From Candidatus Enterousia sp. (GTDB taxonomy: Bacteria > Pseudomonadota > Alphaproteobacteria > Rs-D84), in NCBI GenBank assembly GCA_045613345.1, contig JAZLAT010000005.1, forward strand, positions 67,588 through 131,587: a stretch of 64,000 bases of DNA, given 5' to 3'. Below are positions 11,661-53,672 of the stretch, piece after piece. Below the pieces are notes generated by a model. That model was given only the letters and a program-made list of their open reading frames with translations. It ran no database searches and was not told the DNA's origin. A program made the position numbers and the translations under genes. Every line of letters begins with the position of its first letter. Within the stretch, counting starts at the first letter, position 1.

Positions 11661-11686
11661 TAAAAAACACGGGCGCGTATGCGCCC
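11661..11686 (-). terminator. Rho-independent terminator of ruvX
   Basis: Stem GGGCGC / GCGCCC (11671-11676 / 11681-11686). A T-run follows on the minus strand (plus-strand AAAAAA at 11662-11667). Confidence 0.6.
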
Positions 11687-11742
11687 GCACTAACCCTTGT
11701 TCCACGAAGCCTTGGCGAAGTGGAAACTAACCACTAACACTA
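11687..11742 (-). repeat. TAGTG-type short tandem repeat element in the 3' region of ruvX
   Basis: The sense strand reads TAG TGTTAGTGGTTAG ... GGGTTAGTG CGGGCGC, starting at the stop codon and running into the terminator stem. Confidence 0.7.
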
Positions 11743-12183
11743 CCTTGCCATCATCGCAATTGCGTTTTCCAAAATTACACGTGCAGCATTCGAATCCAAC
11801 CCTGCCTTGATATCACGCACGCGAATACGTCCCATTTCGCCTTGGGCGGCGGCGGAAGATAACGTTTCATCAATAAATATAATCGGCAAATCGGTTGCGT
11901 GCGCCAATGCGTCTGCAAAAGCCCGCACCGCGGCCGTCGTTTCTGATTCCGTGCCATCCATCCGCAACGGCAAACCAATCACAATTCCAACCGCATGAGC
12001 ATCATTCGCTACCGAAACAACACGCGCCACCAATTCGGTCGCCCCGCACCCAACAATCGGGTCCCGCGCAAATACAAATTCCCGTGATAGGTCCGACACT
12101 GCAACACCCGTCCGCCGCGCGCCCCAATCGACACCAACCAAAACTCCGTTTGCCGGAAAAGCCTTGAAATCGTCTAAAATCAT
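11740..12183 (-). CDS. ruvX: Holliday junction resolvase-like / pre-16S rRNA nuclease RuvX (YqgF)
   Basis: 147 aa with VLVGVDWGARRTGVAVSD, typical of YqgF. Confidence 0.85.
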   Translation of the reverse strand: MILDDFKAFPANGVLVGVDWGARRTGVAVSDLSREFVFARDPIVGCGATELVARVVSVANDAHAVGIVIGLPLRMDGTESETTAAVRAFADALAHATDLPIIFIDETLSSAAAQGEMGRIRVRDIKAGLDSNAARVILENAIAMMAR

Positions 12184-12219
12184 TGTATAATCACCTTTGC
12201 ATTAAATATAGGATTCAAA

Positions 12220-12516
12220 ATGGCATTTAGCAAGCAACAATTACGCAAATTTGCGGACCTGATTAAAATCGATATTTCGGACGAAGATTTGGAACGCATG
12301 AATATCGATTCAGTCGTAGAATGGATTGATAAATTGAAACAAATTGACACGGACGGCATCGAACCAATGCTTAGTCCTGCGGAACATCACCTGCCCCGAC
12401 GGCATGATGTTGTTACCGATGGTAACATTCGCGATGCGGTTATGGCAAACGCGCCAGATAAATCGGGCGTATCACGCGGATATTTTGCAGTGCCAAAAGT
12501 CATGGACGCAGATTAA
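12220..12516 (+). CDS. gatC: Asp/Glu-tRNA(Asn/Gln) amidotransferase subunit C
   Basis: 98 aa with typical GatC length and C-terminal motif (YFAVPKV). It lies upstream of gatA and gatB. Confidence 0.85.
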   Translation: MAFSKQQLRKFADLIKIDISDEDLERMNIDSVVEWIDKLKQIDTDGIEPMLSPAEHHLPRRHDVVTDGNIRDAVMANAPDKSGVSRGYFAVPKVMDAD

Positions 12517-12526
12517 AGGCAACACA

Positions 12527-12934
12527 ATGACAGAAAAAAAATATGATGTGACAATATCGGAACCATATGATGGTTGGGGCTGTTACGAACCGATGGCCGT
12601 ATATTGCAATTCAATGAATCAAGAAGAAATTCAAAAATACATCGAACATGTTGCAAAACATGCAAAAATTCCAACCGATTCATGCCTGTTCAAGATGAAT
12701 ACACACTTGCAAAATTGTGATTGTATAGATGTATTGGTGTCTCGGGACAATGATAACATAAATACAACCAAAAAAAATTATGCCAGTTATATGAAAATAT
12801 CTGTTCAAATGACGAATAATCGCAAATGCCCACGTGAAAAATGTTTGGAAAATATCAAATATGGCAAATGCAGTGACGCGTTTGTTGTGAATCTAATTGG
12901 CAAACAATTTTTCGCCGACAAATACGCAAAATAA
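12527..12934 (+). CDS. Cys-rich hypothetical protein, 135 aa (paralog A)
   Basis: ATG at 12527, 10 nt after the gatC stop, with RBS AAAGG. Contains 8 Cys. The C-terminal tail is GKCSDAFVVNLIGKQFFADKYAK. Confidence 0.55.
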   Translation: MTEKKYDVTISEPYDGWGCYEPMAVYCNSMNQEEIQKYIEHVAKHAKIPTDSCLFKMNTHLQNCDCIDVLVSRDNDNINTTKKNYASYMKISVQMTNNRKCPREKCLENIKYGKCSDAFVVNLIGKQFFADKYAK

Positions 12935-51684: not shown

Positions 51685-51734
51685 AATTTGACCTTTTGAT
51701 TTATTTGGATTAAAATACCCACAAAGGATAACAA

Positions 51735-52313
51735 ATGATTGGAAAATTGCAAGGCATTGTTGATTATATTGCGCCCGACCATGTTATTTTGATGACGGGC
51801 GGGGTTGGATACCGGGTCTATACACCGGAAAACCTGCGACACGGCGAAAATGTGACACTTTGGATTGAAACAATTGTGCGCGAAGATTCGATTCGCCTGT
51901 TTGGGTTTGGAACACTAGCGACACAAAACCTGTTTAATATGCTGATTGGTGTATCTGGGGTTGGACCACGTGTGGCGATGGCGATAATGTCGACAATAAA
52001 ACCCGAAACATTAATGACGGCAATCGCGACCGGCGATGCCAAAACAATTTCAACCGCGCCGGGCGTTGGGAAAAAAGTTGCCGAAAAAATCATAGTGGAA
52101 TTAAAATCCCGTGTTGGCGGCGCATCGATTGCATTGAACTTTGGTGCGGAGACGGGCGGCGCCCTGCCCGACTTGCTGGCGGCATTGGAATCATTAGGGT
52201 ACAGACGAATGGATATTGTCGATATGGCACAAAAATTGGTATCTGAAAATCCGACCGCCGATGTATCAAAACTGGTGCCACTTGCCCTGCGTGAAATCAG
52301 TGGGAATAAATAA
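51735..52313 (+). CDS. ruvA: Holliday junction DNA helicase subunit RuvA
   Basis: 192 aa with MIGKLQGIVDYI, HhH motifs (GVGPRVA, GVGKKVAEKI) and a C-terminal domain III. Confidence 0.9.
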   Translation: MIGKLQGIVDYIAPDHVILMTGGVGYRVYTPENLRHGENVTLWIETIVREDSIRLFGFGTLATQNLFNMLIGVSGVGPRVAMAIMSTIKPETLMTAIATGDAKTISTAPGVGKKVAEKIIVELKSRVGGASIALNFGAETGGALPDLLAALESLGYRRMDIVDMAQKLVSENPTADVSKLVPLALREISGNK

Positions 52314-52314
52314 G

Positions 52315-53613
52315 ATGAACAATGACACAATTTTTGCACTGTCCAGTGGCCATGGAAAATCAGGCGTTGCGGTAATCCGCATATCGGGCGATAATCTTGA
52401 ATCGTTTGCTAAAAAAATTATCGGCTGTGCCACCTTGGCACCCCGGCGGGCGTATTTTACAAACCTGTGCGATAACATGGGCGAATTGATTGATCAATGC
52501 GTTGTCATATATTTTGCCGCACCGCACAGTTTCACCGGCACCGACATAATTGAAATTCAATGCCACGGCGCACCGGCGGTGATAAATAAAATATTTGATT
52601 TCCTGCATACAAATAATATGCGAATCGCCACCCCAGGCGAATTTTCGCGCCGCGCTTTCTATAACAACAAAATGGATTTGTCTGATGTTGATGGATTGGC
52701 GGCATTGCTGGACGCCCAAACAGACCGGCAACGCGCCGCGGCATTAAAGTCTATGACCGGCGGCGACAGCGACATTTACAACGATTGGCGCAACCAAATG
52801 TTGGACATATCGGCATGCATTTTTGCGATGACCGACTATGCACCTGATGATTTGCCTGCGAATATTTTTGACACGGTTATGCAAAGAATAAAAACTCTCT
52901 ATACAGCGGTTTCCGCCGCATTGGCGAAATACACCGCATCGCGTGCAATCAGGGCTGGCGTGAATATTGCGATTGTTGGCGAAACAAATGTTGGCAAATC
53001 TTCACTGTTTAATAAAATGGTTGGAACGGCGCGCGCCATAGTATCAGATGTCCCCGGCACCACACGTGATGTGGTTTCAATGAATTTGGATATTGATGGA
53101 TATTTGGTAAATTTGTCTGACACGGCGGGTTTACGCGACACAACCGATTCGGTGGAACGAATCGGCATCGAACGTTCGCACGCCGAAATCGCAAATGCAG
53201 ATATAATAATTCATGTAATAAATCCGAACGATTCGGCACAAAAAATCGGCAACAACGAAATCTTGGTCGTCAACAAATGCGACACAACCGAATCGCGGGA
53301 CATAAAAAACGCAATCTATGTTTCGGCAAAAAATGGCATTGGGATAAACGAACTGATGCGCGAATTGCGCACACGCATTCGCGACATTACCGGAAACGGC
53401 GAATCGATTTTAATGATAAACGCACGCACCTATGATTTATTACGCACGGCGGCAACGGAATTGAAAAATGCCATTGAAAAATCCAACGGCGATTATGACA
53501 TTATGTCGGAACACGTGCGCTATGCCGCGGACGCAATCGGAAAAATTCTGGGCACCATTACCACCGCCGAAGTCATCGACAAAACCTTTTCGCAACTATG
53601 TTTAGGTAAATAA
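52315..53613 (+). CDS. mnmE: tRNA modification GTPase MnmE
   Basis: 432 aa from the ATG at 52315 (MNNDTIFALSSGHGKSGVAVIRISG). G domain GETNVGKSSL and a C-terminal CLGK. Confidence 0.9.
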   Translation: MNNDTIFALSSGHGKSGVAVIRISGDNLESFAKKIIGCATLAPRRAYFTNLCDNMGELIDQCVVIYFAAPHSFTGTDIIEIQCHGAPAVINKIFDFLHTNNMRIATPGEFSRRAFYNNKMDLSDVDGLAALLDAQTDRQRAAALKSMTGGDSDIYNDWRNQMLDISACIFAMTDYAPDDLPANIFDTVMQRIKTLYTAVSAALAKYTASRAIRAGVNIAIVGETNVGKSSLFNKMVGTARAIVSDVPGTTRDVVSMNLDIDGYLVNLSDTAGLRDTTDSVERIGIERSHAEIANADIIIHVINPNDSAQKIGNNEILVVNKCDTTESRDIKNAIYVSAKNGIGINELMRELRTRIRDITGNGESILMINARTYDLLRTAATELKNAIEKSNGDYDIMSEHVRYAADAIGKILGTITTAEVIDKTFSQLCLGK

Positions 53614-53637
53614 AAAAACGGGCGGCATTTGCCGCCC
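53612..53637 (-). terminator. Rho-independent terminator of the acyl-CoA ligase gene
   Basis: Stem GGGCGGC / GCCGCCC (53620-26 / 53631-37). A T-run follows on the minus strand (plus-strand AAAAAAA at 53612-18). Confidence 0.65.
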
Positions 53638-53672
53638 GCACTAAACACTAACCACTATCACTAACCGCACTA
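53638..53672 (-). repeat. TAGTG-type short tandem repeat element in the 3' region of the acyl-CoA ligase gene
   Basis: The sense strand reads TAG TGC GGTTAGTG ATAGTG GTTAGTG TTTAGTG CGGGCGG, from the stop codon into the terminator stem. Confidence 0.8.

Follow-up and report, generated by a model that had tools for sequence, protein, structure and literature searches.

The DNA analysed here (the window) is a 64,000-nucleotide (nt) stretch of contig JAZLAT010000005.1 from Candidatus Enterousia sp. (GenBank assembly GCA_045613345.1, positions 67,588 to 131,587 of the forward strand), in which four gene ends run into short tandem arrays of TAGTG-type units. The genes concerned are ruvX, a gene encoding an AMP-binding ligase and two convergent genes for proteins of 268 and 230 amino acids (aa), with all four arrays situated between protein-coding genes (Table 1). 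Re-reading of the sequence located the arrays where an earlier note on this DNA had placed them, with the sequence it had described, and Pfam matches agreed with its gene identities (RuvX, an AMP-binding enzyme and, opposite the ligase, MnmE). The whole genome (G000; rumen, ~1.07 Mb, 33 contigs, 42% G+C, 93.6% complete) was examined for further arrays and compared with relatives assigned to 'Candidatus Enterousia' or to uncultured Alphaproteobacteria from rumen and gut.

At the ruvX and ligase ends, the arrays are direct or solo arms without inverted pairing and were predicted to be largely single-stranded, lying 5' of canonical terminators. As had been proposed, the two hairpins at 11666-11691 and 53618-53639 both scored as minus-strand intrinsic terminators; the arrays share only 2–4 junction nt with the stems, and the junction TTAGTGCGGGCG is indeed common to both ends. 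The ligase stop codon (TAG, 53670-53672, minus strand) is preceded by ...AAA GAA, and the frame-0 reading beyond it, TAG TGC GGT TAG TGA TAG, was correctly given. Three other arrays in the genome precede a near-copy of the ligase terminator hairpin. Read from the other strand, the plus-strand mnmE gene ends in TAA followed by A7 and the same hairpin (window 53614-53640), after which CACTAAAC follows on the mnmE side with no T run.

The pair of arrays between 20675 and 20783 is present as reported, but these are not two separate arrays, both being arms of a single palindromic element. The plus-strand array of the 268-aa gene (from TAA, 20675-20677) and the minus-strand array of the 230-aa gene (from TAG, 20781-20783) each run into the same GTTAGCAG, and the whole 103-nt gap between the two stop codons (20678-20780) is one palindrome, in which a 34-bp core separates the left arm from the right. 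The region 20672-20786 was predicted to fold as one long hairpin on either strand (plus, -42.7 kcal/mol, z -7.9; minus, -46.7 kcal/mol, z -7.5). Paired inverted arms of this kind were found at approximately 17 other elements, and the 34-bp core occurs in 18 copies in the genome, each with flanking arms. The position of the arrays at gene ends was as first described, whereas their beginning after the stop codon was not in three of the four cases, where the first TAG of the array is itself the stop.

Table 1. Features of the TAGTG-type arrays in the window, and settings of related arrays elsewhere in the genome. C numbers denote contigs.
Feature	Position	Strand	Remarks
ruvX open reading frame	11740..12183	-	Pfam match RuvX; minus-strand end ...GCA AGG TAG
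ruvX array TAGTG-TTAGTG-GTTAG	11726..11742	-	first TAG (11740-11742) is the ruvX stop
Small hairpin TTTCCAC-TTCGCCAAGGCTTC-GTGGAAC ('type B' cargo)	11695..11725	-	flanked by two direct TAGTG units
Single GTTAGTG	11688..11694	-	fused to ruvX terminator stem via junction TTAGTGCGGGCG; preceded by AAGG, then CGGGCGC hairpin
ruvX intrinsic terminator	11666..11691	-	11-bp stem, 7 G-C pairs, then T run
Left arm of palindromic element, TAA TGG TTAGTG TTAGTG GTTAGCAGTAT	20675..20703	+	TAA is the stop of the 268-aa gene
34-bp core hairpin CTGGAATTAATCCGCAATTACGAAATTTTTCCAG	20704..20737		fixed-length core
Right arm, TAG AGAGTG TAAGTG ATTAGTG TAAGTG GCTAGTG GTTAGCAGGCT	20738..20783	-	TAG is the stop of the 230-aa gene
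Ligase intrinsic terminator (CGGGCGG hairpin)	53618..53639	-	9-bp stem, 8 G-C pairs, then T7
Solo arm at ligase end, TAG(stop)TG CGG TTAGTG ATAGTG GTTAGTG TTTAGTG	53639..53672	-	
Setting A, ~18 inverted arm pairs			fixed 34-bp core CTGGAA..TAATTA..TTCCAG
Setting B, arrays around TTCCAC..GTGGAA hairpin	C5 67242; C5 79319; C22 52282		three copies
Setting C, arrays immediately 5' of near-identical terminator hairpins			CGGGCGGCAAATGCCGCCCG
Setting D, five leader copies, 3' of a hairpin	C5 20428-20500; C15 about 33000; C31 2510-2560; C31 79210-79275; C33 about 18790		before AAAGGAACAAAGGGAG-ATG (ribosome-binding site)

With an array defined as at least three TAGTG-type units, the genome contained 52 arrays compared with 0–3 in shuffled genomes, and 106 TAGTG doublets compared with 6 for a reversed control pattern; the lone hexamer TTAGTG showed no enrichment in the window (19 observed, 16.9 expected). 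Repeats of this type made up 32 of the 38 intergenic tandem repeats with a period of 5–8 or 13–14, and the genome-wide tandem-repeat scan found no other intergenic heptad or hexad in comparable numbers. The arms are runs of 6- and 7-nt units, the most frequent being TTAGTG (54), GTTAGTG (41), TAAGTG (23) and ATAGTG (12), with frequent alternation of the first two giving a 13-nt super-period. Canonical TTAGTG accounted for 62% of innermost and 40% of outermost units, a difference too slight to show that arrays grow with a clear polarity. Just one further intergenic heptad array was clear, TCTCAAC/TCTTAAC (reverse complement GTTGAGA/GTTAAGA), which lies at a contig end (C18 36-66, 4.4 copies) and may represent a second arm type. 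In the leader setting (setting D, Table 1) the arm forms part of a duplicated 5' leader common to five genes, which consists of the hairpin GACATGTCGATTCGACATGT, TTTGTT, 2–4 TAGTG units, AAAGGAACAAAGGGAG and ATG.

The arrays could be regarded as plain microsatellites, seeded by chance TAGTG at stop codons (TAG+TG, TAA+GTG) and expanded by independent slippage, with no cassette origin. The common variants TAAGTG and ATAGTG, the single TAGTG just past the ligase stop in several relatives and the differences in copy number between species would be in keeping with this explanation. It is nonetheless quite improbable in view of the same unit and 13-nt super-period throughout the 52 arrays, the lack of any comparable rival heptad or hexad in this genome and the ~18 precise inverted pairs on a conserved core; furthermore, the same arms flank a gene in relatives, and other species repeat the pattern with heptads of their own, as described below.

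The position of the arrays relative to genes was far from random. Twenty-one of the 52 arrays start no more than 6 nt from, or overlap, an upstream stop codon in the same sense (3.9% for random intergenic placement, p ~1e-16), and none of the 52 abuts a gene end in antisense. Among the 39 elements counted, 35 were classifiable by gap type: convergent gaps held 17 of these, where 19% was expected (p 6e-5), tandem gaps held 16 and divergent gaps only 2. The arrays are a real family with an orientation, clustered at gene 3' ends, and the genome-wide check that had been suggested gave neither random orientation nor equal use of 5' regions, although the association with stops is not exclusive, 13 of the 52 arrays facing a gene start. 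Arrays directly before a start codon are a minority, comprising the rbfA-lepA junction and the five leader copies. An alternative genetic code was also considered and rejected, the genome having long open reading frames (ORFs) and 90% coding density under table 11.

Fifteen of the 21 genes adjoining an array end in TAG, compared with 14% of genes genome-wide, and the first array unit is therefore the stop codon itself; of the 156 TAG stops in the genome, 15 (~10%) are accounted for in this way. Stops in two or three sense frames were present in 47 of the 52 arrays versus 25% of control segments, while most arrays read in antisense contain TAA in at least one frame. The suggestion of a back-up stop module was hence correct as to multi-frame stops but not as to a back-up role, since the arrays act as the primary stop. 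A related possibility is that the arrays are a selected module of the 3' untranslated region (UTR), either a single-stranded (UUAGUG)n platform bound by a protein or small RNA (sRNA), as triplet repeats of the TRAP type are, or a fail-safe three-frame stop that would keep ribosomes out of the terminator or the convergent gene. The strong sense-orientation enrichment at stop codons, the multi-frame stops, the position of the predicted unstructured solo arrays directly 5' of terminators, the retention of the ruvX arrangement in the relative G063 and the recurrence of ligase-site arrays in several species all favour such a module. However, sense orientation would be automatic for arms, because an arm always has its 5' end on the free, outer side, and the arrays facing gene starts, including the five copies in 5' leaders, do not fit a 3'-UTR role. 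Most species of the genus have the same genes without arrays, unit number varies from 0 to 5 at one site among relatives, arms of this very kind enclose a PF05635 gene in sister species, and no candidate binding protein was found. We therefore consider a 3'-UTR module unlikely, and the dedicated binding platform of the earlier note is unsupported.

The wider family to which the arms belong was evident from sister species, in which the complete element consists of two inverted arms around a cargo gene encoding a PF05635 four-helix-bundle protein, of the family that includes the protein of 23S rRNA intervening sequences (IVS) and the Avd protein of diversity-generating retroelements (DGR). In G006, G028, G073 and G098 the PF05635 gene lies between a TAGTG left arm and a CACTA right arm, and this cassette is situated between an rbfA-like gene and lepA. 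At the rbfA-lepA junction of the present genome there is only a five-unit solo left arm, TAA-TAAGTG-TTAGTG-GTTAGTG-TTAGTG-GTTAGTG-GGGAAAAATG(lepA), which has the junction GTTAGTGGGG in common with G098. No PF05635 match was found in this 93.6% complete genome, and the window elements are accordingly gene-less derivatives rather than full cassette members; the genome as a whole holds only gene-less forms, namely paired arms on the 34-bp hairpin, arms beside hairpins or terminators, and solo arms. A PF05635 gene was detected in 6 of 36 genomes of the same genus and in two of five further array-rich genomes. Across 121 genus genomes the number of TAGTG doublets was bimodal, ~25 genomes holding 20–150 and the remainder 0–3, at or below the control.

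In each lineage the gene-less arrays match the unit of its own cassette. This unit is TAGTG in G006, G028, G073 and G098, whereas other PF05635 genes in the genus are associated with the heptads CAAAGTN, AACAGAK, AGAGCAT, GTAACTN and TTGCTCT. Dispersed doublets of the own cassette unit numbered 42 in G020 (CAAAGTN) and 27 in G026 (AACAGAK), gene-less pairs included, each unit being near-absent elsewhere (0–3 matches in the genomes checked). The arrays of the present genome are thus arms of this cassette family that supply stop codons and prefer gene 3' ends.

The class was also sought in metagenome contigs with an alignment of five PF05635 proteins, giving 80 loci, 68 of which had enough flanking sequence; these loci are related to one another, and their counts overstate independence. 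Inverted arms were clear in 52 of the 68, a period of 7 was seen in 42 of 47 distinct arms, and a stop triplet was present in 34 of 47 left arms compared with 33% of random heptads of equal composition. Across phyla, a TTRG core is common in the arms (TTAGTA, TTAGCC, TTGGTA and TTGGCT, compared with GTTAGTG in this genome). Of the 43 usable loci, 20 have a long upstream ORF that runs in the same direction and terminates within or at the left arm, whereas a control window placed 45 nt farther from the gene gave 6 of 43, so that the flush fit to an upstream stop is a property of the class and not of this genome only.

The 34-bp core was found in 5 of the 121 genus genomes, all five array-rich, and arms were found in more; the arm is hence more widespread and more ancient than its cargo, which varies. 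Two types of half-site, CTGGAATAATTTCG-TAATTA and CTGGAACAAACCCG-TAATTA, build the 18 cores of this genome. Mixed cores pair by G-U on one strand and would leave A-C mismatches on the other, so that the element is polar as to strand at the RNA or single-strand level. The 3' coding ends of PF05635 genes resemble the half-sites (..TCTGGATTGATTCAT.. in G006, G028 and G073; ..TCGGGTTTGGTAAAT.. in G098). When the 3' interiors of cassettes (L087, L088, L125, L126) were compared with the core halves of G000, a 10-mer, GAATCAATCC (P ~0.012), and an 8-mer (P ~0.14) were shared, and from these sequences the core might be a fold-back remnant of the cassette 3' end. An origin of the core by internal deletion of the cassette is suggested but not established by this likeness, with only the 10-mer and the 8-mer in common.

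Taken together, these data support the contention that the window arrays are arms, built of repeat units, that belong to stem-loop cassettes of a family specific to this lineage and present here in gene-less form, a reading to which we assign a probability of about 0.6. Of the three roles proposed in the earlier note, the terminator-associated mobile mini-element comes closest; the mini-element itself was borne out, although movement was not observed. According to this reading, elements would spread as units and later lose their cargo or one arm, and would survive where damage is smallest, at the 3' ends of genes and mostly in convergent gaps. Each unit has TAG on one strand and, in most cases, TAA on the opposite one, and the 6/7-nt period shifts these triplets through the frames, such that an ORF entering an arm would be closed within a few codons. 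Because arms would stop translation in any frame, flush placement, even where the native stop is overwritten, may be tolerated without the production of fusion proteins. The number of units would subsequently drift by slippage. Paired arms would give the transcript a stem of at least 20 bp, a plausible substrate for RNase III (the gene for which is encoded in the genome) or a 3'-end stabiliser, by analogy with IVS, while the solo arms at the ruvX and ligase ends would be unstructured relics between stop codon and terminator.

Comparison with relatives showed that array copy number changes between species. At the ligase end, examined in relatives with 80–88% protein identity, the unit count was 0, 1, 3 or 5, with the units on one side of the terminator or on both: a single TAGTG just past the stop in L001, L006, L012 and L023, three to five units on one side in some relatives, arms flanking the terminator on both sides in L010, L016 and L022, and in L021 an array that fills the entire gap, with no terminator. 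More distant relatives without TAGTG arrays (L026, L029, L030, L037, L039, L047, L053 and others, at about 3080-3200) have a different palindrome of ~100 bp at the ligase gene end, AAATTAAATATAAT..ATCTA..stem..CATGTAGCGTTTGTACACTACG..stem..TAGAT..ATTTAATTT. Five array-rich relatives lack any element at the end of the 230-aa gene, where their terminators are ordinary. Both array and hairpin are kept after ruvX in G063, the nearest relative (71% RuvX identity); there the second unit supplies the stop, and both sides of the hairpin stem have changed (TTCCCAC/GTGGGAC). G067 and G018 also have related hairpins downstream of ruvX, and in other species a plain terminator follows the gene. In several species (L098, L103) the hairpin (T)CCAC-TTCGCCAAGGCTTC-GTGG(A) likewise recurs past ruvX, sometimes in two or three tandem copies, without TAGTG units.

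Several of these observations weigh against a cassette origin. The compensatory change in the retained ruvX hairpin of G063 could indicate function, the ruvX and ligase arrays are not inverted pairs, and the likeness between the core and the inner ends of the cassettes is weak (the 10-mer, P about 0.012). The PF05635 gene was missing from 6 of the 10 array-rich genomes tested, from which it follows that arrays persist, and may spread, without that gene. No movement was observed, and neither a target-site duplication nor a mobility enzyme is known for the elements. Because the nearest relative has only 71% RuvX identity, there was no strain-level empty or filled site with exact borders, and exact-protein look-ups with RuvX and the 230-aa protein matched nothing. 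Finally, the gene calls on which the placement statistics are based came from a crude longest-ORF caller (1118 genes, 90% coding).

The palindromic doublets, their extragenic location and the GTAG motif at the arm-core junction (GGTTAGTAG), together with a Y1 transposase gene on contig C9, would be expected if the elements were non-autonomous transposons, similar to REPINs (paired repetitive extragenic palindromic [REP] sequences) or MITEs (miniature transposable elements with inverted repeats), moved in trans by an IS200/IS605-type Y1 or another transposase. This is very improbable, as the C9 enzyme, the only transposase found, belongs to an ordinary IS200 that lacks TAGTG units and has unrelated hairpins at its ends, a Y1 transposase is absent from four of five array-rich relatives, no transposase gene was found with these arms, no target-site duplication was seen, and tandem-unit arms are not a feature of REP sequences. 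Mobilisation by a REP-associated tyrosine transposase (RAYT) or by IS200 was rejected on the same grounds of unrelated ends and absence from four of five relatives. The C9 gene (L081, 297-1104) encodes an IS200/IS605-type TnpA of 156 aa (Y1_Tnp, 137 bits) on a 1.1-kb contig; an 88–93-nt hairpin-bearing end (CCACCCG..CGGGTGG ...GACCTGCC) occurs at both 297-389 and 1018-1104, which suggests tandem or collapsed copies of the insertion sequence. Two other candidates were likewise set aside: synthesis of the units by a reverse transcriptase or telomerase-like enzyme, there being no RVT_1 match in the genome, and an integron attC origin, suggested by the likeness of GTTAGTG to the GTTRRRY core, since the elements lie dispersed among housekeeping genes with no cassette array. 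Five tyrosine recombinases were found in the genome and were not linked to the TAGTG elements.

A more ambitious version of the cassette reading, rather unlikely but of wider consequence, would have the arms as active parts rather than debris. In this version the PF05635 protein, as a binder of nucleic acid similar to Avd, would recognise its own cassette's heptad and then cause arrays of arms to be copied or to grow at gene ends. The unit lengths (7, and 6+7=13) are both 1 mod 3, and unit length and both-strand stops may together have evolved as a universal translational insulator, acting in three frames on both strands, by means of which the cassette could settle flush against a host stop or take its place. 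Genomes such as the present one would then be 'fossil fields' left after loss of the PF05635 gene. Were this true, rRNA IVS would be tied to the orphan family PF05635 and to heptamer repeats that lack an explanation (STRR, short tandemly repeated repetitive sequences, and TAACTGA).

More generally, a single repeat family here writes roughly a tenth of the TAG stops of a highly reduced gut-bacterial genome and fills whole convergent gaps. If the arms serve as frame-independent insulators and RNase III stems, a selfish cassette could inhabit compact genomes without damage to genes. Annotators should expect gene ends and TAG stops made by such arrays, which may also break metagenome assemblies. 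Similar short tandem repeats are known in cyanobacteria as the STRR heptamers.

Among described repeats, the TAGTG elements show similarities to REP sequences and their bacterial interspersed mosaic elements (BIMEs), MITEs, REPINs, Correia elements and Rickettsia palindromic elements (RPEs), these being short extragenic hairpin repeats present in tens of copies, often beside terminators, with a preference for gene 3' ends and convergent gaps. They differ in that the arms are tandem 6/7-nt arrays and not a unique inverted repeat, and in that the full-length form holds a non-transposase gene. Assignment to the MITEs would not be appropriate, as no transposase occurs with these arms and the degenerate outer units show no recognisable target-site duplication, and neither would assignment to REP or REPIN, the Y1 gene on C9 having no flanking TAGTG units.

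The literature search found no description of repeat-armed PF05635 cassettes as a class, of gene-less arms or of their stop-codon role. The earlier statement that no such element had been described is nevertheless only partly true, since the heptamers of the Coxiella IVS (PMC4990558) and the TAACTGA repeats (PMC4679880) are partial precedents. TAACTGA heptamers, reported from Beggiatoaceae, Cyanobacteria and Bacteroidetes, provide three-frame stops, are oriented relative to genes and lie mostly before start codons (MacGregor 2015, PMC4679880). The two families share short tandem runs (2–6 copies of 7 nt for TAACTGA), an almost entirely intergenic and gene-oriented location, stops in three frames and a patchy phylogenetic distribution suggesting horizontal spread. 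However, TAACTGA repeats lie mostly one to a few nt upstream of starts and the TAGTG arrays mostly at stops, the TAGTG units alternate between 6 and 7 nt, and the TAACTGA paper contains one inverted repeat and no link to PF05635.

The closest resemblance is to the ORF-bearing 23S IVS of Coxiella burnetii and Leptospira, in which a PF05635 ORF lies in the loop of an inverted-repeat stem, an arrangement like that of the sister-species cassettes. In Coxiella the stem holds tandem GACAGAT heptamers, the number of which varies between strains, and RNase III cuts there (PMC4990558). PF05635 proteins are related to DGR Avd (PMC10053308), and PF05635 genes have also been found wedged between cas genes (PMC3936711). 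In contrast to the 23S IVS, which are insertions in helix 25 or 45 of the 23S gene, the window arrays lie between protein-coding genes and do not belong to that class; the arms of this genome are, moreover, gene-less, dispersed at about 40 loci and supply stop codons. The TAGTG family connects three subjects that are poorly understood: the PF05635 family of the IVS protein, related to Avd, the ORF-bearing rRNA intervening sequences and the short heptamer tandem repeats of several phyla.

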